This document shows positions 13,712 through 38,092 of a DNA stretch of 46,597 nt, piece after piece. The stretch lies in NCBI GenBank assembly GCA_049724395.1, contig JAUGWO010000133.1, positions 62,001 to 108,597 on the forward strand. Direction: 5' to 3'. Each line of letters starts with the position of its first letter. Within the stretch, counting starts at the first letter, position 1. The position numbers and the translations under genes were made by a program. Origin of the DNA: Spongospora subterranea f. sp. subterranea. Lineage: Eukaryota. Below the pieces are notes generated by a model. It was not told where the DNA came from and did not search any database. It saw only the letters and a program-made list of their open reading frames with translations.

Positions 13712-13785
13712 TGTCCCCGAGGGGATTCGAACCCCCGACTTCCGGCTCATAAGACCAGCACTCTAACCGACTGAGTTACGAGGAC
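13712..13785 (-). tRNA. tRNA-Ile(UAU), intronless
   Basis: GTCCTCGTAACTCAGTCGGTTAGAGTGCTGGTCTTATGAGCCGGAAGTCGGGGGTTCGAATCCCCTCGGGGACA folds to a cloverleaf; anticodon loop CTTATGA. Confidence 0.95.
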
Positions 13786-13897
13786 ATACACCTATAAAAC
13801 TTCATCCGCGTCTTTAATAAATGTGTTAAGCGGGAGTCGTTTTTCAGAGCTGCCAAGGCTCATCGTCGTCGCCAACGCTGTTGTGATCGTCGTAGTG

Positions 13898-16010: not shown

Positions 16011-16083
16011 TGCCAACATCGCGGATCGAACGCGAGACCTTACGATCTTCAGTCGTACGCTCTCCCAACTGAGCTATGGCGGC
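16011..16083 (-). tRNA. tRNA-Phe(GAA), copy 1
   Basis: GCCGCCATAGCTCAGTTGGGAGAGCGTACGACTGAAGATCGTAAGGTCTCGCGTTCGATCCGCGATGTTGGCA; cloverleaf, A/B boxes, downstream T-run. Confidence 0.95.
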
Positions 16084-16309
16084 CTTTTTGCGACTACACG
16101 CTTCTAGTCACAGTAAAACTGATTCGCCACTCCTCTTCCACCCTAACATCGTGTACCTGTTGGTGAGATCAAAGCTATGGGGAGCAGAAGAAGAGCCTCC
16201 AACAAAACGAACAGGACACCGAGACTAACAACTCGCCAAACCAACAACGACAACAAAACTCGGAACACCTCCTACCGCAGGAAGTCGACCTGTCGAAACA
16301 CGCCAACGG

Positions 16310-16425
16310 CCTTACAATCAGAGTTCACAGAAACAAATTGGGAAGAGTTCAAACGAAAGACCGAGATACAATATTGGGTTATCGGATAGAAACATACCTG
16401 ACGTACACACCCAATCAGCTCAATC
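16310..16425 (+). mobile_element. Copia gag N-terminal relic upstream of tRNA-Phe copy 1
   Basis: QSEFTETNWEEFKRKTEIQ / GYRIETYLTYTP aligns by eye with IPEFDGKNWEIFRRKLETQSIRMGIETFLEFLP of the gag at 23580. Confidence 0.7.
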
Positions 16426-16494
16426 GTTCGAGAAAAGGAACGACCAATTGGCATGTCGTTTTGGCGTCTCGTCGCAGTGCAGCGGATTCATGGA

Positions 16495-16770
16495 AACTGA
16501 ATTTTATCCAGAACCTTGTGAGACGACATAAGAACCGGTGTTGAAGGCCGGTTGGGCAATTTTACGACGTCGAAAATCAAGAAGTTCCTGTTTAATCGTT
16601 TGCTCAGCGAGACTTGACTCTCAATCCTGTGACACATGCGTTGATCAAATCATCAACAAAAAACCAGAAGTTAGCTTGGCGTGTAGCATTCCTCATATGG
16701 AGAGGATCGCGCTAGATTGATAGATTGCGCCATGAGTAGGTTTCAAAACGGTACCAAGATATTGCAACTA
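16495..16770 (+). repeat. Copy B of the ~275-bp direct repeat, ending 72 bp before the 7TM-RGS start
   Basis: Colinear with 13898-14171. Confidence 0.92.
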
Positions 16771-16842
16771 AATAATCGAGATTCCATAGGGGGGATTGAT
16801 CCGCTATAGCATGAAAAAGTGACCTTGCCCAGCAGTAGCGCC

Positions 16843-18635
16843 ATGAACACTGTAGACGCCAAGGTCACATTATTAACTTTATGGTGGTGTTGGGGCGCCG
16901 TTCAGCTCATCTACCATATTACTGTGTTTTTCCTGTTTTACCAGCGGCGCCATTTGTCTCCAATTAGATTTTTGAATCCAAACTATATGCTGATTGCCAT
17001 AATGTTTGCGTCCTTGTTCTCTCTGTCGATTACCGCCAACTATGTCATTCCAAATGTTCAGGCGTTTTATGCTGTCGTCGTTCCCCAGGCATGTATGTCG
17101 GCAAGCTGCGATATGTTCCTCATTATTGGCATTAGCCTTTTCCTAGCTTTTAACCGTACTCGGGGGCAACTGAAGTTCGCTCGGGAGTGCAATGAACCAG
17201 CGGAGCAAAATCGGCTGATGTTTTCTATCAAGTTGTCCAAGATTTTACTCAACTGGAGGGCCCAATTAGCCTACGTCATCATGAGCACGCTCTGCCAGAT
17301 CGCATTTCAGTTGAACTACGCGTTGGGTCATAAAGATGTGCTATTTAGACCCGTTGCCGAATTAGAAATCGGCAACGCCAACGTGGCAGAGGTTGAGGGA
17401 ATAGCTGGCAAAAAAACGGTCATCTCCTTTGCAATTTTTCTCTTATTGGCTTTACGATTGCGGATTGTTGTCGATGTTCACGGGATCAAACGCGCCTTGA
17501 GAAGAACGGTCATGGTGGGAGCATTCGATTTCATTATGTATTTCCTGGGCAGCGTGATAATGAGTCAAGTCAACTCTGAAGAGCAGAAATCCATTATGAG
17601 TATGATCACATTCCTTATGCATACAGTTGTGGGGAATCTCATAATTACATCGTAAGCGCGGACAATGACATTGTTGAGGATCGAGTGATTTCTACTTCGC
17701 CGAATCCCAGGTCGTTTACATGAAAAACGCATTTGAATCCAATCAATCTACTGTTCGACGGTTTATTTTACCGCTTTCTTCATCTGAAGACGTTGCTGAT
17801 CGTTGTTGGCTTGTTGGGAATTTAGGAACATCACGGTTCCGTTATGGCAATCCTATAGGACACAAGCGGCCAATTCAGCGCTTTCACCCAGGGGATCACA
17901 AATGGGCGTCCTTGAAGCGTTTCTGAAGACGCAAACAGGCTTCGAATCATTCAAGTATACAACTTTTCAACGACTCATTTTTTGTCCCTACTGTCAAATT
18001 AACAATCAGTTTCCCCTATTGCCATGCAATTTACGCCGTCATTTCAGACTACGTTTATTTGTACTAGTTTGCTGTTGTATTGCGGCCAAATCAACCATGA
18101 CAAATGAAGGTTTAACCTGTGCATGTATGATACATCAACGTATTGGTAAATTAATATCATGTCAATGTCTCACAGAACTATGCTGGAACGCGAATTCGCC
18201 GTCGAGAACATTCTGTTCTGGGACGAATGCGAGAAGTTTCGAATGGATTCCTCTGTTTTATTCATGGAAAGAGATAACCGAGAAGTCAAGGACTCGATGT
18301 CGGGTGCCGATCTATTCCTAGCGGGTCGCGCTAAAACAATATTCGACAGATATTTGGCCACAAATTCTTTATTAGAAGTGAACCTACCAAGTGAAACCTT
18401 GGAATCATATCGATCTTTATTTGAGGAAGATTATGAGAGCTCACCGCGGATCAACAAGGATCTGTTCGTAGAAGCCAGCAAAATGATCTTGGCGCTGATG
18501 GAGGCCAATTTCTTATCTAGATTCTGTGATATGGAGACCGTCGTCTGGAACAAGTTTGTGGAGGAACGGCGGGAAAACGTCGTCTTAGAACTCTATTTAA
18601 ACAAGTCTGACAAAATCCCATCTCAAGATAAATAA
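16843..18635 (+). CDS. 7TM-RGS protein (multi-TM domain fused to a C-terminal regulator of G-protein signalling domain), 3 exons
   Basis: Exons 16843-17651, 17826-17954 and 18176-18635 join in frame at GT-AG introns. About seven hydrophobic segments precede RGS motifs LEAFLKTQTGFESFK, LEREFAVENILFWDECEKF, AKTIFDRYL..SLLEVNL and LFVEASKMILALMEANFLSRF. Confidence 0.9.
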
Positions 18636-19919
18636 AATATTTATACACTGACTCATTGGTCCAGTGTTAAAGAAAGAACAAACAACGACCGTCCAAAGAT
18701 TATGGAAGGACAGCGATCGGTCGATGATGCGTTGTTTCAGGGCCTGAAACCGCATTTCAATCATCACATTATCGCTATTTTTCATTTTTTTGGCACTGTC
18801 GAACCGAAATATGTTTCAACTCATCATATTTTTTCCCACAATGCTGCGAACGTTTGTAAAATGTGTTGACGAGGTTTAACGAGTTTCGCGGGATGAAGTC
18901 TCTCAGTTTACATTCTTCGCGCTTTGAAATCAAATTTCTGTTTCAATTGCACCAGACAACAAGCTGTGGACTCGAAAGAAAGAATGAGGGCAGACAGACC
19001 TCTTTCCGGCAGATCTGCGTTGGATGGCCAACCGACAAACTGACATCTGGTAAATACTGCATGGACATAAACCGTCATCAACACAAGACCTGGAATCTTT
19101 TCTAAAACAACTTCAACCCCTGACTGAAATTACCACAATGTCAAATTTACAGCAAATCAAGGTCGGCCCTTATTGAACGCAATCAATCAATCAATATTCC
19201 AAAGGAAATCATCGAGGCAATTGATTACAACGAAAGGCAAATCGCTAAAATAATGCGATGTCCCGCAGTGGCATCTGAGCGCGATCGGCAACTCAATTAC
19301 AAAGATTGCATCATCTTAAATTTTGGGGAATTCAATTTTTATTTGGAGTTTTGGTTCTCGAGAAAAAATCAAAAGGACTATTGAAATTGAAATACTCTCA
19401 AAAAGTTACGTCAACAAATTGGAGGGATATTTCAAAGGCCCCAGCAACTGCATAATCCTTACTGGTGAAAGTTTCGCCTGATGGTCCCAAAATGTCACCG
19501 TCACCATGGCTCCCGCCTCCAGTTCCGGCGTCGAGTAGTGCTCCCATCCTGGACTTTGGGCTTTGATTCGTAATCGAATTTTCTCTGTACGTGTTAAGTT
19601 TGTTGTTTACTTGCGCTGGTAAGTCGGAAAATCGAATCAAATATACAGGATTCGCCGAGGGAAGAGAGGGAACGACGAATGAGGGAAAGTGCAATAGACA
19701 GCGAAGTCGATGGTGAATTAAGATAACATGTGAAGATATCCCCAGCGACCTGCGATTCATCGGGGTTTCCACAAAAAATCCCGAAATTGTCCAATGTCCG
19801 ATTAATCGTACACCTGAAATCAACGTTTTTTCGTTTTTGTGAGTTTTCATAGTGCTGTCACAATAGAGTTTGAGGGTAGTGGTGGTACCGATGGGTCTTC
19901 TCTGGTTCATTTCGCAATC

Positions 19920-20890
19920 ATGACTCCAAACAACGGAGCTGTGCAAGCAACGGTGGTTTGCGTTGCCCCGCAACCTTCTAGAGAGGAGGATCGCGCCAGA
20001 GGATCCACTGGACGAGGCAGACTACCTATCGCCAAATCAGAAACCGAAATCGAGGCTCGTCAGGATGACGAATTCAGGATGAATCCGAATTTCCTCAAAT
20101 TGCAGGACGATTTTGTGGGCAAGACCTTGACGTTGAGGAGCAGACTTTACTGTTCCGCGGTCGTTGAAAGGCTTGATCATGCCTTATTAGCAAAACGTGC
20201 CGAAGCAACTCGCACCGGAATCTTTACCATGTTCGCTATTTTCACGGTAGATTTGGTTGTCTGCTGGGTCAACGAACATATTTGTTTACCCTTCCATCTC
20301 AATCTCTGGATTCTAAGCCAGAAATATATAAGTTCTTGGCGGTCGTGCTATTCTCAAATTGCAACAATTGGGACATTGCCACGTCGCTGGATGTACTTTG
20401 CAGAATCCTTGAAAACAATAAGTGAAAGTCAAATATTTCCGGAAAGATGTCGAGTGATATCGAACAATGTCAGGGCTGACTCTGTGGTGAACCGTGCAAG
20501 CTCAGGCAATTCCAGTTGGAACGGCGCTCGAGACGAAACCGTCCATGTCGAAGAACTCGAGAAATCATTGTTCCGGTCTTCGAATGAAATGTTTCCCGCA
20601 ACCAGGTTCCAAACAGTAACTTTGGATGATGACCTTCTCGGGACAAGGGCATCTGATAACCAGGTCAACATGCTTAGTAGCGCAAAGCTGACAAAAAGGG
20701 CCATTCAGCTGACGAGCTAGCGGACCCTCTATTCTGGACGGCGTTGAAATTTGAGATTTCGGCGACGAGGAGTCACACAGGACAGTACTGTAATGTTCAA
20801 GAGCTGCACAAAAACATTTCCTAAAAACAATTGTTCTTTAAATTTAAGAAGACTTCGGTTAGCCGGTGATCGAGGTTATGCCAACCATTT
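19920..20890 (+). mobile_element. Degenerate piggyBac-like DDD transposase relic
   Basis: VTLDDDLLGTRASDNQVNMLS, then (frameshift) KADKKGHS, later LRFRRRG and LAGDRGY; the layout echoes piggyBac D1 (DE..F.GR..KPxKxG) and D2 regions. Frameshifts and stops present. Confidence 0.45.
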
Positions 20891-20999
20891 TTACCTCCAA
20901 AGGATCAGAAAAGTCGTCGCTCTGAAAGACAAAGGTATGATAAATAGCACCACAACAGAAACCCAACAGTCTCGACGATTTTCATTAGCCAAAAACATG

Positions 21000-21072
21000 T
21001 GCCAACATCGCGGATCGAACGCGAGACCTTACGATCTTCAGTCGTACGCTCTCCCAACTGAGCTATGGCGGC
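21000..21072 (-). tRNA. tRNA-Phe(GAA), copy 2
   Basis: Identical to copy 1; T5 terminator downstream on the minus strand. Confidence 0.95.
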
Positions 21073-21160
21073 CTCTCTTTTAAGTTAATTAGCCAACTCT
21101 TCTATTATCATTCTAATACCGAGTACTGTACTACATATCTCCATCAGGTTTCAAACTCAA

Positions 21161-21790
21161 ATACCGCAATTCCCCGGATCGAACTGGGATGAGTTTGAAA
21201 GGAAACTCAAAGATCAATTCACCATCATGGGAAATTGAGTCCTACTTAACGGACCTACCAAACCCCACATCGCGACATGAACTGAGAAATGACAAACCAG
21301 ATATGTATGCGACTCCCACAACCTCAGTACAGACAAGTATGACAATGTGAATCAACATGCGCTATCTGGAGCCGTCTAGGTCTCTAACACGACCCGGCGC
21401 GTACAATATCAGTAGTATCGGAGAACTGGCACTTTGCACGAAAGCACTAAATGGACTACTGGAATCTTACCAACAGATCAAGGCAGCAGCCAGGGCATCG
21501 AAAGTCAACACGATCCTCAACCTCACGAATCCCTTGATGTCAGCCGAAAGAGATGCCAAGTTGAAAACGACCATCATGACTCCGAGTTTCGTCAACGCGA
21601 ACTCAGAAAATGAGATACCGGAATCCACAAAACCAAGAAGACAGGGCAAATACTGTTTAAAGTGCAAAAATGGAAAACCAATCCAACAAAGAATGTGGCA
21701 TACTTCACCCGGAACAGAACCGGAAAACAAATACGATGGCGAACAGAACATCTTGATCTGTTGGTAAGATTCCGGTAGTCGAAGGCAAGG
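21161..21790 (+). mobile_element. Copia gag(-protease) relic upstream of tRNA-Phe copy 2
   Basis: IPQFPGSNWDEFERKLKDQFTIMG/IESYL..ELRNDK and IGELALCTKALNGLLESYQQIKAAARASKVNTILNLTNPLMSAER match the 23580 gag; a degenerate CxxC knuckle and a W*DSGS protease-like motif follow. Confidence 0.85.
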
Positions 21791-21869
21791 CCACCCTGAA
21801 TCACATAATCAGATAAAGGCAGCCTTCAACGAAATTTGAGCGGTTAAACTCGATCGCGTTAGTAGGGTA

Positions 21870-22190
21870 ATTCTTGACTCTTTCCGTTGAGTGGGAAACC
21901 TCTGCAGACGTCGTCTCGTGTGTTGCTCGAATGGACGCTTTAGCATATCCACAACTTTCGGGGTACTGCCGCCCATCTGAGGCTTTGCACATTGTGCAGT
22001 TTCTTTGATTTCGGTGTCAGTTATCGCATACAGTCGTATTCGTTGATTAGGTTATCCAGATACATATTTGATTGACTGCGTTCCCTGTTTCTCAGATCTG
22101 ACGACTTGGAATACTCAGGGTGGATTAGCCGTGCCTTGACTTTTAATGTAGTTTTTGTAGGCTATTTTATATTCGTAGATGGTTTTGCAT
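21870..22190 (-). mobile_element. Second, inverted copia gag relic
   Basis: Minus-strand YLDNLINEYD, IKETAQCAK and PESCGYAKASIRA correspond to YLDRLIETYH, MGEIALCTK and SQVYEQAKAAAR of the 23580 gag. Confidence 0.55.
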
Positions 22191-23134
22191 GACTCAATTC
22201 GCTTCGATTGGAAATGACGAGAACTGAGAAAAATTGTGATTCTGCGAGTGGCCATAGCTGCTGTCACAGCTGCGATCTGAATCGAGTTCGGTTCGGTTCG
22301 CCATGGCCTCCAGGATTCTTCAGAAGTGACGAGAGACAGAACGGGTATTGCGTCTATTGACGATGCAATTCATGATAGGATAGACTGTGCTCACCAAAGT
22401 TGCCATGGACATAAGATATCCTGGCAGTTTGGGTCAGAGAATGCTGGGATATCGCAACCGACTCATCAGTGAGATTGAACAACAACTTTCCAGCGATTCG
22501 GCAGAAAGTTTTGCGGAACTGTCAACAAAAGTCTGTCCGCTCAGCCGGAAGAGAAGATTCTCAATGAGGCGTGTTTGCGTTATAAAGTCACTGAAAACAA
22601 GGAACTCAAATACGCGGATGCCTTCACGGTTTTGGAACCAAGACCAAGTTTAATGCTGTCCAGCCAGAACGAACCCACATCAACACATGTCCAGACGGAG
22701 CAAATGAGTGAGGGTTCTTTTGTACCTACATTGGGGCCAAAAGCGAGGGATAAACGTTCACTGGACAGCGTTGGGCTTTGTTTTGAAACCTTGAAGGAAA
22801 AGCCTCACTTGTTGTTGCATAATTTGTTGACACATTCGGAAGACTTGTTCACGCGTCGCTGTACAGTTGTCCAATGGCAGACTGGGATCTTCTGGCATTC
22901 TCTATGACGCAAACTGTAGGGGCACCCTTTCGCCAAAACGTCTCGGCATGTTGATCAGCGCCGTTAATCGCTTTCAAGAAACAGCTAGCCAGCAAGATGC
23001 CACACTTGGAAGGTATGGATGGTTTCCACAGCTGCCGGTGTGACACGACGAAACCTCTTTGACAACAGTAAAGAGACCGGTGGAGCTATAGGAAACATAC
23101 GGAGCGTTTTGAGAGGATCAAAAGGCAAAAACAT

Positions 23135-23207
23135 TGCCAACATCGCGGATCGAACGCGAGACCTTACGATCTTCAGTCGTACGCTCTCCCAACTGAGCTA
23201 TGGCGGC
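23135..23207 (-). tRNA. tRNA-Phe(GAA), copy 3
   Basis: Identical to copies 1 and 2; T5 terminator downstream. Confidence 0.95.
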
Positions 23208-23218
23208 TATCATCGTTA

Positions 23219-23340
23219 TATCAGACTATGCGCTAACATATGAAGATTATCATTACTTAACAGAGAGAGTACACTCTAATGACTCACCGAAGGAACTTGA
23301 TAAAGTTTAGTTCGCTATCAACCTTCTTGCGCATCTGTAA
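23219..23340 (+). repeat. 5' LTR (122 bp)
   Basis: TATCAGA...GCATCTGTAA; matches 24569-24674 apart from a 16-bp indel and a few substitutions. Confidence 0.9.
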
Positions 23341-23358
23341 GATTAAGAGTCCCAGCTC
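23341..23358 (+). promoter_or_regulatory. Primer binding site complementary to the D-stem/anticodon arm of tRNA-Lys(CUU)
   Basis: GATTAAGAGTCCCAGCTC abuts the 5' LTR; its reverse complement is GAGC-TGGGA-CTCTTAA-TC (anticodon CTT in a 7-nt loop). Confidence 0.8.
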
Positions 23359-23579
23359 TCGAAGCTCAGGGTCAAGTGAACCATGTCCGACGATGAAAGG
23401 ACGGCAAGACGCGTCCGTCGGGCAGAAACCAACGACGCTCAACAAGAGCATGAACACACAGATCAACCAGCATTTGCCCAAGGAGAGCAAGGCCGAGTAA
23501 GATCTAGCGGAACAAGGGACACATAGAAAATGTTCATCTTCTGCAGACAGAAGTTGATCTTCAGCAGTACGCAACTGGT

Positions 23580-24160
23580 TTGAATCTAATTCCCGAATTT
23601 GATGGAAAAAATTGGGAAATTTTCAGAAGGAAACTGGAAACACAGTCTATCCGCATGGGCATCGAAACTTTCCTCGAATTTCTACCAGGCACATCAACGG
23701 CCGAGATAAGAAACGACCGAATCGCTTACGCAGAAGTTACTATGAGACATTCTCAACTTGCATACAAGCAAATTGCATCATGTCGCTATACCAAGGACGT
23801 ATGGGAAAAATTGTGTGAAATCTATGACGAGAAGAAAGATGCTCAAGCTTCTACAAAATTCGTAAAGTTCATCGAGGACAAGAAAAATTTCACCGAGACG
23901 GTGAAGATCTACCTAGACCGCTTGATTGAGACGTATCATGACCTCATCACGATAGGCATCAACATGGGCGAAATAGCCCTATGTACGAAGGCCCTGCACG
24001 GCCTCTCACAAGTTTATGAACAAGCCAAAGCGGCAGCTCGACCTTCAGAGGTCAAGACGATCGCGAAACTGACGAATCAATTGCTCGCGACAGAACGCGA
24101 AAAGATTGGCAACAAGCCAAAATCCAGCGACGACGCGCAGACACCGGAGCTTAAAGCATT
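23580..24160 (+). pseudogene. gag: Copia Gag (truncated)
   Basis: IPEFDGKNWEIFRRKLE, TKDVWEKLCEIY, ETVKIYLDRL and KALHGLSQVYE are retrotran_gag_2-type motifs. Confidence 0.85.
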
Positions 24161-24163
24161 ACA

Positions 24164-24586
24164 TTGGGTGAAAATCCGATTAAAAAATCCAAAAAGCAAG
24201 GATGCGTCGCATTATCGACGACGGAAGCTGAATATATAGCAGCATGTTCCGCAACTAAAGAAGTTATTTGGCTACAAGACCTTTTGATTGAGCTTAGGCT
24301 CCTGAAACAAGTGCCAAAAACAATGTTATATCAGGACAACCAAGGAGCGTTATTTATTGAAAAGAACGACTGCTCCAGTCAAAGATCGAAGCATAAAGAT
24401 ATCCAACACCATTACGTTCGAGACATGATTAAAGAACAAAGGATCGACGTAAAGTACGTCCCGACGAACAATATGGTTGCCGATATACTTACGAAGCCTT
24501 TAAATGAATTAATCTTCAAAAAGCTCAGGGTTTTCCTGACGAATGATGGTTCAGTTAGCCAGGGAGCGTATCAGATCATGCGCTAA
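24164..24586 (+). pseudogene. pol: Copia RNase H C-terminal part
   Basis: SKKQGCVALSTTEAEYIA, YQDNQGA, RSKHKDIQHHYVRD and VPTNNMVADILTKPL. Confidence 0.93.
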
Positions 24587-24674
24587 CATATGAACAGAGA
24601 GAGTACACTCTAATGACTCTCCCAAGGAACTTATCAAAGTTTAATTCGCTATCAACCTTCTTGCGCATCTGTAA
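24569..24674 (+). repeat. 3' LTR (106 bp)
   Basis: Follows the purine tract directly; matches the 5' LTR. Confidence 0.9.
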
Positions 24675-25353
24675 TGAATGTGAAAATGTTGACATCGCAC
24701 TACCAACATATTCTCAACAAGACCCATCAAGCATAAGTCAACATTGTCCATTACCGTCTTGACAATAATGAACCACGACAGAAGAGCCAGCGGACGGGTG
24801 TCGCTTCATACAGCGCGCTCTAAGCCCAGTGTTTCTTTTGCGAGCTCGATCGTTTGTTTTTGTTGTTGAAATCCGATATTGATGCGGCGTCATCTCAGGT
24901 GGCCACGACAATGAACACCACCGACAGGATGTCAAAGATTATAACACAAATAGCGACCTGAAATATAATCCAATTACAACTGTGTCCCCAACTGGTGTCG
25001 ATCGTGATCCGTATTGCGATTGAGGTGTTTATCTGTTGTTGTGTGATCCTACAGTTCTAGTCCTGGTGCTCAATGTGCTGTATAGGGAATACCATGTCCA
25101 TCCATACACACATGACCTGTTTATGGCGATGAAGGCGCATCAGCTCACAGCAGGATTCCATTTGAGCCAGTCCTAATGAAGCAACTGAGTCGTGACGACG
25201 ATCAGACCAACCGTCCTCGGAGTCAAGAGGATGATCGCCGTCGTTGGTCATCGTAGACTCACACGACTGCTGTTTTAACAATACCACATTCTTTCATAAT
25301 CGTTGGACTTGAGTTCAGACGATGCCGATCACGTTGTCCATGATGAGAAAGCG

Positions 25354-25840
25354 TCAAAGTTTGTTATCGTTGACAATACACAGGTCGTAATTGATTGACA
25401 TGAATGATAACGAGCCGACCTCATCCTCTCTCAGAAACAGTTTACAGGCAATCAGGGTCATTGTCCATATCATCAAATCCCACACTGTGTTCTGGCTTAT
25501 CAGATGCGTCCGCATTGAAATCAGTTCCAATGGAGACAATGGTGTATCGCCCTTTGCCACATAATCAGGCCGGTCAATCTTGGTCCGCTTCACAGCATTT
25601 GTCAGCAACTCTGACTCCTTGGGATGACCCTTTCGCCACAGCAAGCCCAGACCCACTTTATTGTTGATCAGGGCGGTATAGATCGGGGATGTGTATTGCG
25701 ACAGACGTCTTTCTATCAACACGGTGATTGTGATGGAGTATATAATATCCTTGTGCTGGTGACCCAGATCAAATCAACACTACGAGCTATCATTTCTCGA
25801 GATCGACGCGATAGACCTGCCAAATTCTGCCATTGTATCC
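25354..25840 (-). mobile_element. Crypton-like tyrosine recombinase relic (N-terminal half)
   Basis: LLWRKGHP..DYVAKGDTPLSPLEL..WTMTLIACKLFLREDE contains the first catalytic Arg box; ~118 bp are nearly identical to 44259-44376. Confidence 0.7.
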
Positions 25841-26233
25841 CCGTCGTAATGGGGCCAGCCAAACAGAATCTTTCCGATGCAGGAATAGGAAGATTGAATG
25901 GCGTTCTTAAACAAAACAAAATGTTTGAAAATAACTACCCGCCAATATTGCTCTGATTAACAGATTGAACCAAACATGACAGGTTGAATGTCCTCTTTCC
26001 TACGACATTGGTTTCGATAAGTAGTCAACACGTTATTCATCATGTAGTTGACCAACGCACCAATCAAATGTTGAACTAAATCACAGCAGGAAAGGCTGAT
26101 AGATGAAAGAGAAGAATCGGGGATCTTAACCCTGTGTAAAACACCTAAAACCTTTCGTTTTCATCCATGACTCTGAACTCATCCTTGGCCCATTGATGAA
26201 CCGCCCAACTGTTGCGCCACATCACATTAGTTC

Positions 26234-26387
26234 AATGGGTGTTCTCAAGTTGTTGGTATTGCTGCTGGTAGCGATCAGACCGACTCGATCTGTGATAACC
26301 GAACATGGTCATGGTTGGGACGAACGGCTTGATTCAGGTCAGGTCAATGCCGCTACACGAATCGCCTCCTCGACTTTATCGGTATGA
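26234..26387 (+). pseudogene. Signal-peptide-like ORF start, interrupted by a stop
   Basis: MGVLKLLVLLLVAIRPTRS is a signal-peptide-like hydrophobic start; downstream frames are broken. Confidence 0.35.
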
Positions 26388-26587
26388 ATGACGGAATGTC
26401 GTTCCAAAGAATTGCCAAATTCTGAGAGCATTGGCCCTTGCAGGAAACCATGTCGCAGGAGTTGGCCATGGTCCACACCAATACCCAAGATTTACACAAT
26501 CGAGTATTCGAATATTCGAAATTGGAGTCAAATTTGCTGCCAGACAATTCTTTGTTGACGTTGGAGGTTTACAATATCAATCGTGTC

Positions 26588-26943
26588 GACCAGTTTGGTG
26601 AATGTTCTTCCATGATTGTAGTCGTTCAGTTCATCTTCATATAGATATTCGGCTTGTTAAGTGCTTGTTTAGGAATTGGACTCGAGCCCGGGTTCGAAAA
26701 TTGACGAGTCCCATATCAGTATCGTTTCTCAACAATTGAGCCAAGAGGGCGAGAACCCCCATTGCCTTATCGATCTAAATCGAATTCCTATTGATACGGA
26801 AATTTTGCCTTCAAAAGACTCTCTTGAGAATCTCGTGCCCGCTACCAGAAACGACAACCAGTTTGGTGAAAGTTCTCCGATCAATGTAATCGTTCAGTTT
26901 CATCTTCATATTGACATTCGGCTTGTTAAGTGCTTTTTTAGGA
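26588..26943 (+). repeat. Local direct repeat, ~87 bp (26588-26674 and 26856-26943)
   Basis: ACCAGTTTGGTGAA..TCGTTCAGTT(T)CATCTTCATAT..ATTCGGCTTGTTAAGTGCTT occurs twice. Confidence 0.85.
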
Positions 26944-27002
26944 GCCACAATCCTCGAAGTGGTCTTGATGGTTTGGTGAGTCATTGGAGGGTCAACCTTT
27001 AT

Positions 27003-27533
27003 CTAATATTGGGATGAGCGAAAATCATAATGACAGATATCAGATTCCTCTCTGCCTGTTCCAGGACAGTAATAGCGACTCAACTTGTGGAAGAATACTG
27101 ATTCTCCCCATCTCCGAACAAATTCCTGAACACTTCCAGCGCAATGACGATGTAAACAATTGACCAAAGGACGGTTTGGGTTTCTGATGTTGGTTAGGAC
27201 CGGGATTCGAGGGCATCTCATTGATACGTCTTCGTAATCACGAACTTATCAGTAATGATGGTCAACAGTCAATTGGAAAGCGTAGAGGACCAAACTTTCG
27301 ATTGCCGCATCGAAAATTACGATTAATTTCAAATAACCAGCCTCTTGACGTTCATTGATAATTTCTTGCCAGTAGGCGATTGCCGATAATCGTGATAACC
27401 AATACCTGATTATGGCGTTCCAGGATACATTTTCGCAACAAACTCGCAAAATGGTAAATTTCCGTAATAACAAGTATTTGTTGGAACTGAGAGTGATCTC
27501 TCCGCTCTTAAACTGGGACCTGAATGAGGTCAA
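27003..27533 (-). pseudogene. Frameshifted paralogue of the Cys/His-module gene
   Basis: DKFVITKT / MRCPRIP..RPLVNCLHRHC..; the upstream part is broken. Confidence 0.65.
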
Positions 27534-27773
27534 AGACTATGATAGCCTATGTGTGTTTCTGGTCAGATCTCTGGTTCCCAGCTCTGTCTAAGATTTGATG
27601 ATCACTCGGTTTTTGAAAGGAGACGAATCCTGAACAAGTCGAGTTTGACGACAGTGTCGCCAAAGACTGAACACATCATGAAATCTACTGTCGCGAGGAA
27701 AGTCGGGGGGGGGGGGGAATAACGTTGAGGTCGGACAAAGCAATATCGATGTTCCTGATTACAGGCGATTTTC

Positions 27774-28746
27774 GTGATCTTAATTTCGAATTTTGTTTTG
27801 AAACTGGTCTCTGGCAGAATATCGGACTGCAGTATTAGTCGTAAGGTGAAAGATTGTCTCAAGCGCTTCTGTTTCCCCGTCCTTCAATGTCTTGTGAAAT
27901 GTTGTGGCAAAGACATTGACCAGTTCCAGACACGTTGGGGAACGCGTTTCAAACACGGTCATTTTGGAGTGGAATGCTGCCCCGGTCGTGGATCAAATCA
28001 TAACACCTGCGGTTACCAGATGACGAAAATCGTCAGAAACCCTGAAAACAGGTTTTTTTTCGCCAGCTCTAGAAAAACTGATGAACATTTGTCCTTTCAG
28101 AGACAACGACTCCGGTTTATTGAATCTCAAAGCTCTTGTTGTTGCTGTTTCATTGTCAAAAACCGCAGAAGAAAAACTCAAACTGTGTTGTGAATTCTAC
28201 GAGAAATACCGATCAAGTGGCCCCATGGCTCAAAAGGTTCTTCGATCATATTATCACCATTATTCGAAAGCCATCTGGGGGTGCTTTGTTCATCACTGTG
28301 GCCAAGATATAAACGAATGGATTCGAAAATGGGGCCCTCAATTCGCACATTGGGAATTCGGCACTCGGAAATGTCATGGTCTGAAGTCCCATCAATGCGG
28401 ATCGATCGACCGACCATTTGAAATTCCTGCAAGACGTAATCTTCGCTATAAATCAACTCAAGACCTCCTCTCAGCGCTTTCCAAAATTCGTGAAGAGTAC
28501 GATAAGTTCGTGATTACGAAGACAGCATCAATGAGATGCCCTCATCCGGGTTTAACCACTTTCATCAGAAAGTGCCGTCCTCTTAACAATTGTTTACATC
28601 GTCATTGCGCTGGAAGTGTTCAGGAATTTGTTCGGAGATGGGGAGAATCAGTATTCTTCCACAAGTTGAGTCGCTATTACTGTCCTGGAACAGGCAGAGA
28701 GGAATCTGATATCTGTCATTATGATTTTCGCTCATCCCAATATTAG
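27774..28746 (+). CDS. Protein with three tandem Cys/His modules (one frameshift or intron near 28080)
   Basis: Modules PVLQCLVKCCGKDIDQFQTRWGTRFKHGHFGVECCPG, AIWGCFVHHCGQDINEWIRKWGPQFAHWEFGTRKCHG and PLNNCLHRHCAGSVQEFVRRWGESVFFHKLSRYYCPG. Confidence 0.7.
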
Positions 28747-30320
28747 ATAAAGGTTGACCCTCCAATGACTCACCAAACCATCAAGACCACTTCGAGGATT
28801 GTGGCTCACCAAAAACTAACACCACCATTTCTTCTAATAATGATAAAATCCCTCGATTCTCAATTTTTGACCAAAAACAAACTCATTTTGACGCTTTCAG
28901 AGCGGTTAACACTTTCTGTTGCATCTGTTGACTTCTCTGTTTTCAGAGGTTGTGTCAGTTGATCACGCAGGTCCAGGTTTGGACTTGGTTATCTGGAAGG
29001 ATTTCGGAATTCACATTTCCAGTAGCGCCCATTCGACGCGATCTCCACCGCGTAAGAAGAAGGCGACCAACTCAGCGATCAGCCGAAGTGACGAAACCAG
29101 GTCGGGCGGATGAATATTTACAAAGCGAACGAGATAGATTGTGCATAAGCAATTCCTTGTTGTTTATATGTGAATTTAATTGTAAATCACTCAGCACTGA
29201 ATGGGTCATACTGGAAAAGATATGATCATGTAATGTCGTATGGGAACAAATCTCGACTCTGTTTCGCAACCAAAGTCTTCCAATATTCGACATTCGAATC
29301 AGATATAGGCGTCACTGGACTGGTCACGAGAGGAATAGACTCAATGTGTCTGATCTGGTCGGTTTCGCGATAAGTGTTCACTAGTAATTGACACAATTCT
29401 CAATGAGCGATACCCAAACAATGCAGTGATCGGCGGCGCATTTATTGAGAACAAAATCAAACTCCATAGGTGGATCCTGTATCAATTCGTCACGTCTCGT
29501 CATTCGTCAATGCTTTGAAGACTCGAGAATATTCTACTTTTTGTTGATCGCTCTTCGAAGAATACCCAATTTTGCTACCACAGCAGAGTATCAACAAACA
29601 TCACACAAACTACCCAAAAAACAATCATACCCGTGCTTCAACAAACCCACCAATTTTTCCACAAATTTCGCCAAGTCGTCCAGGCGGTTCGGTGCTGGCA
29701 CAGACATGTGCCTTTCAAAACTTTGCTTGATCAGTTTTGCCATTTCCTCGTCCCTATATCAGCAAATTAAGATAAAACATAGATTGTTCATGAGGATCCT
29801 TTACCTAAATTTATTATAGTCACACAATTTTTCGTGGGTATTGGGAATCGAAAATTGTTGAAAATAACGAATATTGATAAGCGCATTCAATAACAATCCG
29901 CTTTCAAGATCTGCCGACAGCAAATGATCACTGTGAAAATCGAAACATGAATATTGGGATGTAATGGACAGGACGATTATTCGAGTTGACACCACCATGA
30001 TTTCTTTGCCATAACTGACATCGACATCGACCTAAACAGCTTGCGATTATTCCCCAATGTTTCACTACGAAGATCAAGGTAGTCAAAGAATTCAGTCAGG
30101 AAATCGTTCCTGTTCAACGATGATTAGCGGACTATGGCGATAATTAGAGTGGACCGGGGAATACCAATCCGATTCCGTGAATGGTTTGTGTGTTTGGTCA
30201 CTCAGGGTCCTGATAATAATCAAATAAACTGAGTTCACATATAGTGCTCCAGTTCCGCCATTACCATTGCAAACACGATAATTTGATTGCTGAAAGCTGA
30301 GCAAGAGCAGAGTTCCCATC

Positions 30321-30385
30321 TTTAGGTTTGGGAGGGATTCCGACTTTAGGTTTGCGAGCGATTCCGACTTTAGGTTTGCGGACGA
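30321..30385 (+). repeat. 24-bp tandem repeat, ~2.7 copies
   Basis: TTTAGGTTTG(G/C)GAG(G/C)GATTCCGAC repeated. Confidence 0.9.
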
Positions 30386-31519
30386 TAAATGAAATAAGCC
30401 ACTTCACCAAAATATGACGTCTGGGAGATTCAGTTAACAGTAAAACTCAGACAAGGAATGGGACACGAGTGGTTCTGTCCCAATAGAAACACGAACCGAA
30501 CTGAAAGAATTATATCTCTCGATTCTTGAATTTCCTTCCCCACCAATTCAACCAAATCTTTATTGAGCCCGATACGGTTTTTTTCTGTTTTTTTCAGATG
30601 AAGATCAAGGTATTTGAAAAACGGTGAGAAAATATCGTCCCTAGTGAACTTCAAACTTAGCACCCGATGAGGATGGGGAGAGTCATCAGGTTTACCAATC
30701 CGATTCCATCAAATATTTCGCATCACCAATGACCCTGATAATTACAGCATGAAATGTGGCCCGCGACCCCATTTATTGCAGCAATTACCGTTTCAAATTC
30801 ATCGCTTGTGCCCCGACACAAACAACATGTTTGAGATCGATCATCGACATGAGTTGAGACAAGAACGAATCGGGCCTGGGACAAATATTCAGTTAAACAG
30901 CTAACCCTCAGATGCGGAATGAGTTATTCGGCAGTGCTTTCCTACCGATCATTGTGATTCAACAGCGCATTTCTCTCTGCTTCGTTTATCTCATTCTGGA
31001 CTATTTCCACCATATCGGTATTCCCCAAAAAATCCGCAATCGCTTTGGGAAACCATTCACTAATTGACATCAAACGTTAAAACCGAACAATGCATGTGAT
31101 AACTCGAAAAAACCGACCGCAATGCGGTTCTTATCTCGTGTAACAGAGTAAGCCTGAGCCCAGGATACATTTTGAGCGTCCTCAATCGATCCGGAACAAA
31201 CCTATCGTCATCTCGGCTTCGAATACCGTAACAATGACCGCTATTGATGAACAGACATGAACCGGTGAAGAAAACGAGAATCTCAAATCAGATTACTCGA
31301 TGCCGGTATTCGTGACGGCTTTGATCAACAATTCTTCATCGTTTGGAACCTTACTATCAACATGATGTCAAACACAGATGATCATGAAGACGGCATTTAA
31401 CATTCACGAACAAAATTTGACAAAAGCCTTTCAGGGCTTTGGCAACCGGATCAGGTTCGCCAGGCTTCAACATGCAAGACCACACATTGTATTTTTTGAT
31501 CAAGTTGTTTTCGTCAGAA

Positions 31520-33290
31520 AGTTTGCTATTGACAGGAAATCAGATATTGATTATTATCATGGAGGGAATTGGCAATTCCGTACAATATTGGATAAAGGTT
31601 CTCAAGGGCTCCCACCAAGTCAACAGATTTGCGAAATTCACCAGGCGGAAGGTTTCTGAGAAAAGATTGTACGAAATCATCAAACAAGATGTGCTGAACA
31701 ATCGCGAACAAATTTCAATACCGAATTTCTTGGGATCTGCGATCAGACCCAGAATTGAGCAACTTTCTCACAAGAGGCACAACAGGGGCAGGGGGGTTCC
31801 TGTGGATAGAAATTTCAAACACTGATCAAGGCGGTGAACGATTTCGTACAAAAGTTGAAAAAACAATTCTTCAAGATTTGTCGCGTCTGATTCACTCTTG
31901 TCCAAGTTCCATGCATTACGTGCATATTTTGGAGGAATGTTGCTATGGTAAAAAGAAATGAGAATATATAATGATCATAACGGGGATGGACGGTTTTGTA
32001 CAAATCCTGAAGCAACGGTGCTGCTGATCCAATATGGCATCCAGCATTGATCGCCCTGATGACAATTCGGGCTGCGTTGGGAAAATCGTTGCTATGGATC
32101 AGCAATCAGATCAAGACTTCAATCAAGAGGAGGCAAATCGATCACGAACAAGAACCTAAACAGATTTTGGAGATCTTTATCGTCACTACGATGTCTTAGA
32201 ACCAGATTCACAAGGCGCATTTTAGAGGAAGAATGTTCGCTGATGATTACAAAATGAGTTGGTGATGATGACATGAAGAGAGAGGGTGATCTGATACAAA
32301 AGCGATAGCAGCGCTGCAAGTGCATCCGCATCTGCACCAGATTCGACCAACTTGCTCAAATGACTTTTAAAATTGCGAGGAAGACAGCTATCAGAGGAAT
32401 TACAAAAATGCTGATGATAATGACGGAAAGAACGATCCATTACAAGGTGGAAAAAAACCGAAATTCCAGAGCTTTAACATAGGAATTCGGAAGGGGCGGG
32501 ATAGTTCGAGAGGGGGACCTATGCACGATTAGATTATAACTGATTGACGCAGCTGAACGATTCCGTATACATCAGGGAAATCAGTTTTTGACGGAGTTCC
32601 TTCCTCGACAAATATTTCAGCACCCATTTCACATTGGTTTCATTGTCGGAGGGATAAACGCTGTGGACAGGAATTATGTTGGTGATTCTGACAAAGACAA
32701 ACCTCAACGATCCCATACATCAATGAACACAGTCCTTCAAGTGCTTCCCCATCCGCACCGGTTTCGAGAAAGCTCTTTGCAAGACGCAAAACATTGGAAG
32801 TATGGTCGCTATGGACAATCAATTTCAAAATAACTATGAACAGGACAGTGCTGAGCGATACCGTACAAGACTGAAAACAGGTCTTGAAGTGCTTCCGCAT
32901 CTGCACCAGACTCAACCAATTTCTGTCCAAGATGTGCAACATGTTGAGGAAGGTCTCTATTGACACCAAAAAGGTGATGATGATAATCCTGAGGGAGCGG
33001 AACCATCCCTTACAGGTCTGAAAACAAATGTTGATGGGTTCCCTTCTTGGCATAACGATCGATTATCTTCTTGGCCTTTTGCGCATTATCCGAAGGGGGT
33101 TTGCTGTGGAATAGGAGTTGGGATAATGACTACGATCATAATCAGGCTGAACGATCCCGTACAAAATTGACATCGCGTTGTCAAGAGCTTGCATGGGATT
33201 GTGTAAAAACACTGTGGCTGCACTGGACAACGGCATTTCACAACACGAAAAAACCGAATCTTCGATAACAAACCGACACCATAACATTGA
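31520..33290 (-). pseudogene. Degenerate helical-repeat protein of unknown family
   Basis: Recurrent minus-strand motif: ALDNAMSILYGIV, KLVESGADAEALQDLFSVLYGIA, SFLETGADGEALEGLCSLMYGIV, KLVESGADADALAALLSLLYQIT, GALENLYPILYGIA; many frameshifts. Confidence 0.6.
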
Positions 33291-34009
33291 TCAATTTTTT
33301 TTTAAGGTGAACCGTCATCGCTGTCCGCTCGGACTCTGGCACTCCATTGGACATGATTCCTTTGACCAACTCGCCCAAAATCCGATTGACAAATCGGAGA
33401 AAGTAAACGCTGCGATAACCAGATATAAATGGGCGGATACATTAAGGGCCGGCACTATCAACTCACTCAATGTCAATAGGTTCTGAAGAATCAGACACAC
33501 TGCCAGATTTGGCATGAAGCTGGGCACCGTGTCGACACTGTTCGTTATCGCACAAGAAAGGAAACATTTCATTGACGACTTTCGTCACCGCATCATAGTC
33601 TTTCTCTCTAGATGATAACAGGGGGTTTCCCTGACTGGAAAGTGATACAATGGTCAGAAAACGATGGGTGTCATTAAGAATCTGACCCTGTTTTACCTAT
33701 CGGAGGAACCTAGATACCAGGAAAATCATGGACGCAATTACAATAGTGAACACCGACGCCATGGAACACATCATTATGGAAATGGCGCTTTTTGATCGCG
33801 CAAGTTGTTGTCGGACTTCTGTGTACTGGGTGTTAGTCCGTAGTGGTTTGCACGGTCCGGTCCGCGGCTACAACTGGTCCCGAAATATTCCCGGACCGGT
33901 TCTAGCGGTCCCTAAACCACGGAGTCAATCGTGACGGGCGGCTTGAAAAAGCAGACTGCGAATTAACTCTCTAATCAACAGGATTTGAGTAGATTTGAGC
34001 AAAGTTATT

Positions 34010-35100
34010 TCACATTTGCAGTTTATTGAATAGCTGAGCCATCTCATCATCCACGGTGATCATCTTCGCATTCGCGACCGATTCCACGGAACAAGGTAGT
34101 GCAATTGGGAGCTGTCCTGCCCTTTGTAACTTCTCTTTCCCTATGTGCTGGATTTTGAATCTGTTGCCGCCATCATCGTCCATGCAGGACTGCAGCACCG
34201 TTTGTAGTGTCAAAAAATTCGAATTGATTTTTACAGGGTCCAGTTCGTCAAACTACTTCACCGACAATACCACTGCCGTGATCAACTCATCCAAGTTCGC
34301 CGTTGTTTTTTGTTGCTGCAGTGACTGGATTGCACTAAAAAACCCAAGATTCAAAATGTTCATATCCGGACTATTTGGGGGTTGACAGAACAAATTGATC
34401 TTGTATCCACCCTCTTTGGCAGCAAGAAAAGGATCATGATGTGGCCGAATACAAGGTCTTGCATTATCTTGTTGGATTATGATTGGTATGTCATTGGAAA
34501 ACTTGGATTTAATTGCGGGCAAAACCTTCCTTATCAACATCTCCGCGTAAATCTGCTGGTCAACAGTTACCACCGAAGTGACAAGTGCTCCCTTCACCCT
34601 GTTTTTACTGGACCGTTTTGCAGGTTCCGAAGTTGCGAACGGCCACATTCCGATTTTGCCGTCAAAAATACATTTGAATTTCTCGTCAAAACGTGGCCCG
34701 CTATTGCGGCAAGAAACATCACTTTTCTAATAAACCTTTTGCTCTTACATGTTCGATAAGGCTCTTCTTCGTCGTTTGCCAGGTAAAATGTGTTATTTAC
34801 TTGTGTGAGATTGAACCACTTTTCGTCAATGTGCACTGTGTCAAACATCGGTTTGACTTTGGGCGACATCGGCATAGAATCCTGGTCTATCATTGGTAAA
34901 CTAAACTTAAGGCGAAGAATTTTGTTGCTTTCCGTAAGTACTGGCTTGATAGAGTTTGAATGGCGACGAATGTTGCCATTTTTTAGATTGAGATGTAAAG
35001 TTGTAGTGGAAATGGCTGTATCCGCTGATAGACTTCGCAAGTCCCTCTTGACTTCAAAGGAACTGCACTTACAGTTGAAGAGATGTCGGCATACTTGCTT
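34010..35100 (-). mobile_element. Plant-mariner-like (DD39D-type) transposase pseudogene
   Basis: IKPVLTESNKILRLKF, VHIDEKWF, KSKRFIRKVMFLAA, IIIQQDNARP, QPPNSPDMNILNLGFF (third Asp is Asn) and GGNRFKIQH; several frameshifts. Confidence 0.92.
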
Positions 35101-35639
35101 TTACGTCCGCATTGCTTTTTGAAAGAATTAACATCCGCTGAAACCGCTCCAGAGATTATTGAAGATGTTGCACGCTTCTAAATACGGCTTGCTGTCTTCC
35201 AATAAACGCCAACTTCTTGTCCAACTTTGGTGAAAGCACCTTTCTTTGGTCTTCCGTTGTCATCCAGCATCGTCAGGAGCCGCTCATAAATTCCTCTGCG
35301 TTGGTCGGCACCAAGCTCTTTCGATTTGACCGTTTCGCGTCAATGGCTGCTGCTCTTGGTTTTGTAATGATTACCGAATCGAATGTTAGGAGTGTGCACG
35401 AAACACATGACCTCATGAGGACCCTGTCGTGCACCAAAGGGATCGTGTACCGCAGAGCAACGACGGTTCGTATTCGTAGGGCGTCGCTCAGTTTTATTGA
35501 ACGTGGGTTATGAAGAAATTATCAGGAAACCTACACATGGCGACGAGACATCTCAGAGACCATTTACGATGTACGCTAACTTCTTGACAGTAATCGACAG
35601 ATTTGTTAACTTAAATAAAAAAAATGAGCTTAATCGGGT

Positions 35640-36860
35640 AAAAAGAAGCGTACTGGCCAACTATTTCCGAACGGAGGTAGTAAATTACGAAACTCACGAC
35701 AGACTTATTAGGCATTGTTGTCGCATTTGTACAATGGAGGCATCTCTTGAAAGGCGCTGCACGTCGGATACAAGTCGTTAGCGACCACAAAAACCTCAAA
35801 TATTTCGCAACCTCAAAAAAAACTGAACCGTAGACAGCCAGGTGGTCGATGATTCTATCCGAATATGACCATGAAATCCTCCCTCGAGCGGGATCGTTGT
35901 CTGGAAAACCGATGTCCATCCCGTAGACCGGAATTCGAGATCCCCAACGACCCTGTTTGGGCTCAACAGAAAACTGTACTTATTCGAACGGAACAACTCA
36001 CTTCACAGCCAGTTCGAGTCTGTATTACAAGCACGACCGAATCAACCGCGTCAGAAGAGCATTTTCTTCAAGTAATTCGAGAGTAACAAAGCGTTGATTC
36101 GCTCTGTTCAAGAATGATGGTAAAACCCCAAGGACCGTTCAGCATCAAAGAAGGGTTGGTATTTCGGCAGATCAACTGGTGGTTCCAGACTGGGCGGGTC
36201 AGCTGCAAATTTTGTCACAACGTCAATATCACCTCCTGTCATGACACCTTAAACGCAGGAAAACAGCAGCACGGACTCAACGCGAATTTTTTGACCGACG
36301 ATAAGGACAAGCGTCAAAAAGTATGTCGAATCCTGTGATCATGTCAATGTACGAAACCGTCGCGACATAAGCCATATGGGCTCCTTCAGCCACTTCCTAT
36401 TCCGACCAGATTATGGGGATCCATGAGTTTGAACTTCTTTGTCAAATTTTCCAAATCCAAAGGCTACGACTCAGTCATCGTCGATCGATGTTCTAAAATC
36501 GCCCAATTCGTTTGTTGGAACGAGACTGATACGCTTAAGGACCAGCCAAATTGTTTTATTCTAAACGTATTCAAACTACTTGGACTATCGGAGGAGGAGA
36601 TAGTGTCAGATCCTGGCCCCCAAAGGGTCTCTAAATTCTGGGGTCATTCGTTGAGGAATCTGAACATTCAAGCGGAAGCTGTCATCTTAGCGACACCCAC
36701 ATACAAATGGGCAAATTGAACGTGTTAATCAGTTTTGTGCTTACAGCCAGGACGACTGGTCCGATATGGTATCGCTCGCCGAATTCTGCTACAACAACGC
36801 AGAACATGGAAGTACCTGCCTCCACAGTTTTCCGCGAACTACGATTTCTACCCAATATTC
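35640..36860 (+). mobile_element. Ty3/gypsy pol relic (RNase H and integrase)
   Basis: NYETHD, DHKNLKYFATSKKLNRRQ, CDHVN/KPSRHKPYGLLQPLPIP, VIVDRCSK, IVSDPGPQ, HPHTNGQIERVNQ and AEFCYNN; heavily frameshifted. Confidence 0.88.
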
Positions 36861-37171
36861 GCAACCCTCCACGGCACGAAGGCCTCCGTTTGTTCAACCG
36901 CTGGAGAAAGGGCACTCCACCTGCAGAAAATACGCACGTTGATCGTTATCGCGCATATGTCGCACATCCGGTTTGATGTCGCACCATAGTTCATGAGGTG
37001 TCCTCCATTGAATCGATTTCGTCGGTAATCTGTTCTGTGTATAAACGGCATAGCGCACGGCGAATATCCAGAATTCTGGTGGGAGACCGGCATCAATAAG
37101 GATCGTTGTTCATTATCGTCAGGTTTCGTCGTTCTGCTGTTCCCTTTTGTTGAGAGCTGTACGGTATCGTA

Positions 37172-37990
37172 CATCAGGACTATTGGTCACCATAATTGGA
37201 ATTTACGTTGATGATTTACTGATAACCGGAAATGACAAAGTGAAGATCGCAGAATCGATCAGATTTTACATTCAACGTACCGAATGAAAGATCTCGGAGA
37301 AGTAAAAACGTTTTTAGGAATCGAGATCCTACACTAAGAAGCCAACTCAATCATAACCCAACATGCCTACATCCTACAACTCCTAAAACGCTTCAAACAA
37401 GTAAATTGCAAACCAGAACCCACTTCAGCGACAGGTTGCGAAATTACAGACGAAAACATCGTGCCGAACACCTACCCAATTAGAGAAACTTTAGGAGGAC
37501 TCATGTTCATTGCGAACGCGATCGACCAGATATAGTCTACATCGTTAACAAACTGAGCCGATCCGTGTCGAAACCAACAACACAACTCTGGAGAAACGTC
37601 CAACGGATATTTAAGTACCTGAAGGGAACGACAAATTATGGACTAATGTTCGGCAGGCCTGATGAGACAATCGCCTGTTATGCCGACAGCAGCTTCGCTG
37701 ATGACGTTAATGATCGCAAGTCCACAGCTGGATGGTTATTGATGTTCGGACAAGATATGGTGATCAACTAAGCAGAAATCTGTGGCGCTATCAACCACTG
37801 AATCAGAATATATGGCCTGTTGTGATGCGGCAAAGCAAGCTATTCAAATGAAGAACTTATATTAAGAAACGTTCGAATCGAAGAGGCGCGTCAGATAGAG
37901 ACGATCCTAACGTACTGTTGATCCTTATTCCTAACGTACGATTTTTCATAACTTCTAAATAAACTCTTCTGTCTTTCCTCCTAATCTATA
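37172..37990 (+). mobile_element. Copia RT-RNase H relic with putative purine tract and 3' LTR (~37890-37990), ending just upstream of tRNA-Arg
   Basis: IGIYVDDLLITG, MKDLGEVKTFLGIEI, RPDIVYIVNKLSR, IFKYLKGT, YADSSFA..DRKSTAG and KQKSVALSTTESEYMA; then GAAGAGGCGCG-TCAGATA, resembling AGGGAGCG-TATCAGA of the 23219 element. LTR limits are tentative. Confidence 0.88.
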
Positions 37991-38019
37991 CGCTACCGGC
38001 AAATAAAAACAGGAATATG

Positions 38020-38092
38020 GCTTGTGTGGCCCAATGGTCAAGGCGCGTGCCTACGGAGCACGAGATTCCGAGTTCGAATCTCGGCACAGGCT
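38020..38092 (+). tRNA. tRNA-Arg(ACG)
   Basis: GCTTGTGTGGCCCAATGGTCAAGGCGCGTGCCTACGGAGCACGAGATTCCGAGTTCGAATCTCGGCACAGGCT; cloverleaf; T8 terminator at 38097-38104. Confidence 0.95.

Follow-up and report, generated by a model that had tools for sequence, protein, structure and literature searches.

Does a retrotransposon lineage of the plasmodiophorid Spongospora subterranea f. sp. subterranea (Rhizaria) choose the upstream side of tRNA genes as its landing site? The question is raised by one stretch of genomic DNA (46,597 nt; hereafter the window), in which relics of copia-type retrotransposons stand beside four of the five tRNA genes. The window is eukaryotic sequence of 44% GC with many transposable elements (TEs). 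ARAGORN and Rfam concordantly identified tRNA-Ile(TAT) (13712–13785, minus strand), three tRNA-Phe(GAA) genes (Phe1, 16011–16083; Phe2, 21000–21072; Phe3, 23135–23207; all minus strand) that are near-identical and lie within 7 kb, and tRNA-Arg(ACG) (38020–38092, plus strand). Each of the five genes is followed by a T-run as its own terminator, and no other RNA polymerase III (Pol III) gene was detected in the window by Rfam. An open reading frame at 39413–40270 clusters at 90% identity with a protein labelled Spongospora subterranea (two of eight window proteins were present in the collection, and one cluster member bore a name), in keeping with the source. The placement is non-random, and the locus is best explained by a new rhizarian copia lineage that seeks out tRNA genes, a variation on a known strategy. 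We consider it likely that this compact lineage steers its integration just upstream of tRNA genes, in either orientation and probably as a preference instead of an absolute rule.

Searching the window with 120 copia proteins by tblastn yielded four clusters (16206–16424, 21161–21749, 23511–24577 and 36921–37952), each located directly 5′ of a tRNA gene (the three tRNA-Phe genes and tRNA-Arg), as the original prediction from the DNA letters had stated. Relative to the tRNA, the relics occur in both orientations and at two tRNA types. Their protein-defined edges lie 83 (Phe1), 88 (Phe2), 303 (Phe3) and 136 bp (Arg) from the tRNA 5′ end. If placement were uniform, all four edges would be no more than 310 bp upstream of a tRNA 5′ end with a probability of 1.9 × 10−6, calculated as a product with a threshold picked post hoc and with genes left unmasked. 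A hidden Markov model (HMM) of the clade to which the relics belong added weak pieces only, all adjoining the four clusters. With neither the protein queries nor the HMM were clade relics found elsewhere in the 46 kb, which bears out the claim that all copia sequence in the window lies within 1.5 kb of a tRNA 5′ end. Ten non-copia repeats defined by self-comparison and Pfam, among them a gypsy relic, transposases of the mariner type and elements with inverted repeats, served as the control set. On the upstream side of the tRNA 5′ ends, none of the ten comes closer than 1 kb; the nearest, the gypsy relic beside the Arg copia relic, is 1,119 bp upstream.

The identity of the lineage was established through a full-length relative of the Phe3 gag, P0001 (1,268 amino acids, 62% identity). 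P0001 contains Retrotran_gag_2, Pol_BBD, rve, SH3 and RVT_2 domains in the copia order, with integrase preceding reverse transcriptase (RT) and not in the gypsy arrangement, and the window pieces map onto it, showing the Ty1/copia order and a copia-type RT. Ten further proteins (P0002–P0010 and P0012) align over the clade domains with 43–57% identity, while other matches covering most of P0001 are below 40% (among the best 120 of 1,511). An RT tree was built from 64 of 118 usable sequences, namely ten clade members and every second other sequence, with no named reference elements; in it the clade forms one side of a 100/100 branch. Clade elements have a single gag-pol frame of 1,240–1,390 amino acids and long terminal repeats (LTRs) of 106–172 bp. 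Comparison of the clade alignment with metagenome contigs gave five loci, two of them clade members (L001 and L002, with LTRs at 4342–4486 and 4178–4349, respectively) and three distant (29% identity); the viral and prokaryote collections contained no clade locus. P0005 and P0007 both have a longest contig of 21,757 bp and are possibly one contig with stacked copies.

Two LTRs, a primer-binding site and a polypurine tract are present in the Phe3 copy and in L001 and L002. The LTR ends are TA...AA in the window and TG...GA in L001 and L002, and neither the canonical TG...CA ends of Ty1/copia elements nor their 5-bp target-site duplication was found, the window copy being rearranged. These departures leave the protein-based copia membership standing, and because of the GA or AA ends and some TA starts, structure-based LTR finders would likely miss the LTRs of the clade. 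The linker between integrase and RT is 28–43 amino acids long in ten clade proteins; in 106 others it measures at least 58 (median 98). The integrase tail of 10/10 clade proteins and 2/106 others contains a [DEHY]P[LM][EAHQ] motif, which was defined on the clade. The Phe3 copy, L001 and L002 share the same primer site. When one base is added, the reverse complement of this site occurs in tRNA-Lys(CTT) genes in four of five database matches (not the host's own tRNA-Lys) and lines up with the D-stem, the anticodon stem and the CUU loop. As in half-tRNA-primed copia elements, the site pairs with the 5′ half of a tRNA whose end falls in the anticodon stem. The primer-site pattern had no viral matches and three chance bacterial matches without a tRNA.

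The closest approach to a tRNA gene is found at Phe3. The 5′ LTR (23219–23340, plus strand; 122 bp, TA...AA ends) starts 11 bp from the tRNA-Phe3 5′ end, as had been proposed. Contigs of two public DNA runs containing the locus (X1 and X2) were aligned to the window; among the long contigs listed, those of X1 hardly differ from the window and those of X2 show scattered base differences. A multi-copy X2 contig starts exactly at 23219, and the second LTR at 24569 is concordant. The LTR is followed by the primer-binding site (23341–23359, plus strand), complementary to the D-stem and anticodon arm of tRNA-Lys(CUU) with one tRNA base skipped, and by gag (23511–24157, plus strand). A deletion joins gag to the C-terminal part of RNase H (24158–24553, plus strand; 60% identical to P0001), and the protease, integrase and RT region is gone. 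The 3′ LTR (24569–24674, plus strand; 106 bp) is preceded by a purine tract, and its far junction is continuous in contigs of both runs. The LTR pair differs at 8/106 positions (7.5%) and by a 16-base indel. Contig depth, which is no copy-number measure, hints at several to ~20 copies of the Phe3 family.

The junctions at Phe1, Phe2 and Arg are eroded, and the 11 bp at Phe3 is the only measured junction. At Phe1, a degraded gag N-terminal relic (16167–16453, plus strand; best matches P0003 and P0012, E down to 1.6e-4) begins with weak homology 83 bp upstream of the tRNA; the predicted distance of ~230 bp holds for a gag motif (231 bp), and the homology extends nearer. A likely LTR 3′ end of another subfamily (16143–16166, plus strand) precedes it, in which 21/24 bases, compared by eye, equal the X1 loose end at 23219. 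The same sequence recurs elsewhere in the genome, adjoining a Phe3-type LTR. A ‘TGG’ 3′-end primer site considered at Phe1 was dropped, as a decayed Lys site was preferred. At Phe2, a gag relic extending to the zinc knuckle (21161–21764, plus strand; best matches P0005 and P0012) starts 88 bp upstream of the tRNA, close to the ~90 bp predicted; beyond it, up to ~22260, lies a gag piece that has been rearranged and in part inverted. The LTR and gag start are mostly gone. A stretch at 21088–21129 (plus strand) that resembles 16122–16160 is a possible, weak LTR-end remnant, for which 7/806 tiles score equally high. The junction between the Phe2 relic and the tRNA 5′ end is contiguous in contigs of both runs, as is the Ile region.

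At tRNA-Arg, an inverted copia integrase fragment (36948–37170, minus strand; 45/52 residues identical to P0005) is followed by an RT/RNase H relic (37165–37883, plus strand; best match P0007), a polypurine tract (37880–37888) and the start of a 3′ LTR at 37889 (together 37880–38006, plus strand, with the far end estimated). Compared to L001 and L002, the tract and LTR start (37880–37889) beat 1514/1514 and 1513/1514 window tiles, respectively. The predicted RT/RNase H relic, LTR start and opposite relative orientation were all recovered, while the ‘~30 bp’ given for the LTR end rests on an estimate: an intact LTR of 106 bp, the shortest known in the clade, would end 25 bp from the tRNA. The space between the Phe1 tRNA and the LTR end (83 bp) and that between the Arg LTR start and the tRNA (131 bp) are no bigger than one clade LTR, which suggests that the LTRs reached close to these tRNA genes as well. 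The Phe3-type LTR itself has no detectable match in the Phe1, Phe2 and Arg flanks, where 577, 67 and 280 of 786 tiles score equally. At tRNA-Ile, a possible, weak LTR 3′-end remnant (13792–13817, plus strand) lies 6 bp from the tRNA 5′ end and resembles the Phe3 LTR end in 19/26 bases; its score is matched by 1/786 other window tiles, with four tRNA flanks tested. That all five tRNA genes carry a clade remnant is, on this comparison, possible but weak. Inverted internal pieces, fold-back-like, were also observed in two of the four copia relics (36948–37170 and 21752–22260).

Could the four relics descend from a single event? The closest intact members are P0001 for Phe3, P0005/P0007 for Arg, P0005/P0012/P0004 for Phe2 and P0003/P0012 for Phe1, and no relic is nearer to its window neighbours than it is to intact elements of other samples. 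Between the Phe2 and Phe3 gag (67 codons), 39/46 silent and 40/154 replacement sites differ (Fisher p 4e-12), with a saturated pS of 0.83 and a pN of 0.26, the latter lowered by the choice of blocks by protein similarity. Saturated silent sites with a conserved protein point to divergence as working elements instead of decay after duplication. Taken with the different best relatives, tRNA types and orientations, these comparisons support separate insertions from different branches of one clade, in line with the original prediction; since several deep branches are involved, the tRNA habit is probably old in the clade. Segmental duplication of one ancestral tRNA-plus-copia unit, the alternative that the prediction had named as fatal to itself, could draw on the three near-identical tRNA-Phe genes within 7 kb and on a 280-bp local duplicate (87% identity) nearby. 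It is largely refuted by the gag silent-site saturation. The flanks, moreover, are unrelated past ~12 bp, and the Arg copy differs in both tRNA and orientation; we regard this alternative as very improbable. Even less credence is given to tRNA genes that travel with the element, like the tRNA-like sequence in Helenus LTRs. Elements of this kind are known, some of them mobilised by copia, according to the available part of PMC10886601, but L001 and L002 are without a tRNA, the window tRNAs lie outside the LTR with their own terminators, their types differ mutually and from the Lys primer, and the 3′ LTR at 24569 has no adjoining tRNA.

Besides the choice of codon blocks, several observations weigh against directed insertion or its precision. 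The likely targeting is read from one window with its four relics, a stretch picked for its striking look. No tRNA was found in the five metagenome loci, of which L001 and L002 are collapsed on their own LTRs with no host flank. None of the 11 clade proteins contains the Ty1 targeting motif (K-x-M-R-S-L) or the paired KKR. No 4–6-bp target-site duplication was found at the Phe3 copy, and no contig of X1 or X2 spans its tRNA–LTR junction (depth 0 at 23186–23213). When the Phe3 LTR was compared to both runs, 12 of 24 loose ends were covered, comprising three internal variants, four unreadable mixtures of two to three contigs at the LTR 3′ edge and five ends from which four distinct flanks beside other Phe3-type LTR copies could be read; among these, a tRNA end was visible in none (0/4, with 14–30 bases visible). 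For a narrow distance to the tRNA 5′ end, the tally is four of four window relics upstream with one exact junction, and none of the four readable outside flanks. The flanks count weakly against strict precision, since one side per copy is visible, both orientations occur and the Phe3 junction itself is unseen; repeat–repeat junctions appear under-sampled in the contigs. One readable flank abuts a Phe1-type LTR end, placing two clade LTR pieces ~6 bases apart, as expected of repeated landing at one site. No empty site was found among 15 of 20 joints.

Two further explanations draw on these observations. Insertion may be untargeted or loosely biased, with copies persisting at harmless spots beside tRNA genes or in a TE graveyard. 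The TE-rich window, the age and decay of all four copies and the flanks without a tRNA fit such retention, but ten other repeats in the same window show no such placement, and retention fails to explain the exclusive use of the 5′ side and the lack of clade relics anywhere else in the 46 kb; we judge it unlikely. The other explanation concerns precision only and is compatible with targeting: the 11-bp junction at Phe3 would be an assembly mis-join or the product of a later deletion, and the targeting window would be wide and Ty1-like. The unspanned junction and the internal deletions in every relic give this some standing. So do the unequal LTRs and the missing target-site duplication, by which the Phe3 element may be a fusion of two neighbouring copies. 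However, the private bases of the Phe3 copy are missing throughout both contig sets, as expected if contig building drops minority repeat variants, so that absence of the junction proves little; a deletion would have had to spare the intact LTR start at 23219; and there is little room at Arg and Phe1 too. On balance an artefact at Phe3 is doubtful, though a good deal less so than retention. Directed upstream insertion remains the best reading of the window. The further claim of the original prediction, landing at the Pol III start site with Ty3-like precision, depends on the one 11-bp junction and is held tentatively, at somewhat below even confidence.

Integration upstream of tRNA genes has precedents in Ty1/2/4, Ty3, Tj1 and DGLT-A, as tabulated in PMC5911963 (Table 1), where the only copia entries are Ty1/2/4, with an insertion window of ~1 kb. 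Ty1, Ty2 and Ty4 of Saccharomyces cerevisiae share with the clade the copia domain order and the position upstream of tRNA genes. In their integrase tail, K-x-M-R-S-L inside a bipartite nuclear localization signal (NLS) binds AC40 (PMC7459421, in the part available). The clade differs in having no NLS/AC40 motifs, a short integrase–RT linker, a position much closer to the gene and a rhizarian host. The 11 bp at Phe3 is inside the range of Ty3 (S. cerevisiae), Tj1 (S. japonicus), Tca8/beta (C. albicans) and DGLT-A (Dictyostelium), but these are Ty3/gypsy elements, whereas the clade has its integrase before RT and shows precision at one junction only. With the half-tRNA-primed copia elements (Drosophila copia, Ty5, Osser, Bryco, Bianca and rust-fungus copia), it shares a primer site that directly follows the LTR and pairs with the 5′ half of a tRNA, the end of which lies in the anticodon stem. 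The half-tRNA primers named in the available parts of PMC6317226 and PMC10886601 are Met, Ile, Tyr and Asp, not Lys(CUU). Ty5 targets silent chromatin, and tRNA-gene targeting is unmentioned in those parts for the other half-tRNA-primed lineages.

A mechanism can be sketched from these features. For its own copying the element would employ a piece of tRNA-Lys cleaved within the anticodon stem, and its integration complex probably binds part of the Pol III machinery and is thereby tethered upstream of tRNA genes. In at least some cases, landing would occur no farther than ~25 bp from the 5′ end of the mature tRNA, and later deletions and inversions would have eroded the copies. Given the short distance, TFIIIB or TFIIIC is the likelier host partner. 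A candidate for the contact is the integrase tail, which is short and acidic and carries a conserved D-P-L/M-E-like motif, although it may be just a protease cut site. The contact site need not be the integrase tail, as known contacts differ among Ty1, Ty3 (integrase with TFIIIB) and DGLT-A (RNase H with Tfc4), according to the parts of the literature available. Intact members are public (P0001–P0006, L001 and L002), which makes the mechanism testable.

In the available parts of PMC5911963 and PMC5006619, the reviewed tRNA-gene targeters are from yeasts and social amoebae, and convergent evolution is described. It is conceivable, at a confidence short of even, that an ancient copia clade of plasmodiophorids, and possibly of other soil protists, independently invented position-specific landing at the Pol III start site, 5–25 bp from tRNA 5′ ends in both orientations. 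If so, tRNA-gene targeting would have arisen here on its own, through a new kind of tethering that does without the Ty1 motif and is perhaps as precise as that of Ty3; among copia lineages the clade would be the first to be that precise, and among Rhizaria the first retroelement to target Pol III. An integrase almost without a C-terminal tail and a half-tRNA-Lys primer would then serve a targeting element, and part of the repeat layout of plasmodiophorid genomes would be explained. No paper joining Spongospora or Plasmodiophora copia elements or retrotransposons with tRNA was found in a literature search that did not extend to genome papers on Spongospora, to Repbase, to subscription journals or to the supplements of preprints. 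Two Plasmodiophora preprints (bioRxiv 10.1101/2024.04.03.587992 and 10.64898/2026.10.14.759018) mention copia and, in the parts available, never ‘tRNA’. Among the titles and abstract starts listed, none concerned copia tRNA targeting outside yeasts. The literature covered also includes PMC6101501, PMC12883290, PMC6823432 and PMC13746701.

Other features of the window were annotated alongside. The gypsy-type relic (35684–36939, plus strand), with RNase H followed by integrase, abuts the copia relic upstream of tRNA-Arg. The 280-bp sequence, outside the control set, occurs in two copies (13898–14174 and 16495–16773), on the upstream side of tRNA-Ile (at 112 bp) and of tRNA-Phe1 (at 411 bp), each beyond the tRNA-proximal relic; it has no Pfam match in three frames, and contig depth over it is low. 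A Tc1/mariner-type transposase relic (34253–35100, minus strand) and an intact-looking DDE_3 transposase open reading frame (ORF; 40270–41274, minus strand) were also identified. An element at 26935–28815 has terminal inverted repeats of ~320 bp (93%) and a 221-amino-acid ORF without a Pfam match, and a fold-back structure at 42949–43595 is related to it. The gene at 16843–18635 (plus strand) encodes an RGS domain (Pfam E 7e-12) preceded by a hydrophobic portion with several membrane passes, and partly matching contigs suggest a paralog. At the end of the window (44941–46597, minus strand) lies a mucin-like tandem-repeat coding region rich in proline and threonine.

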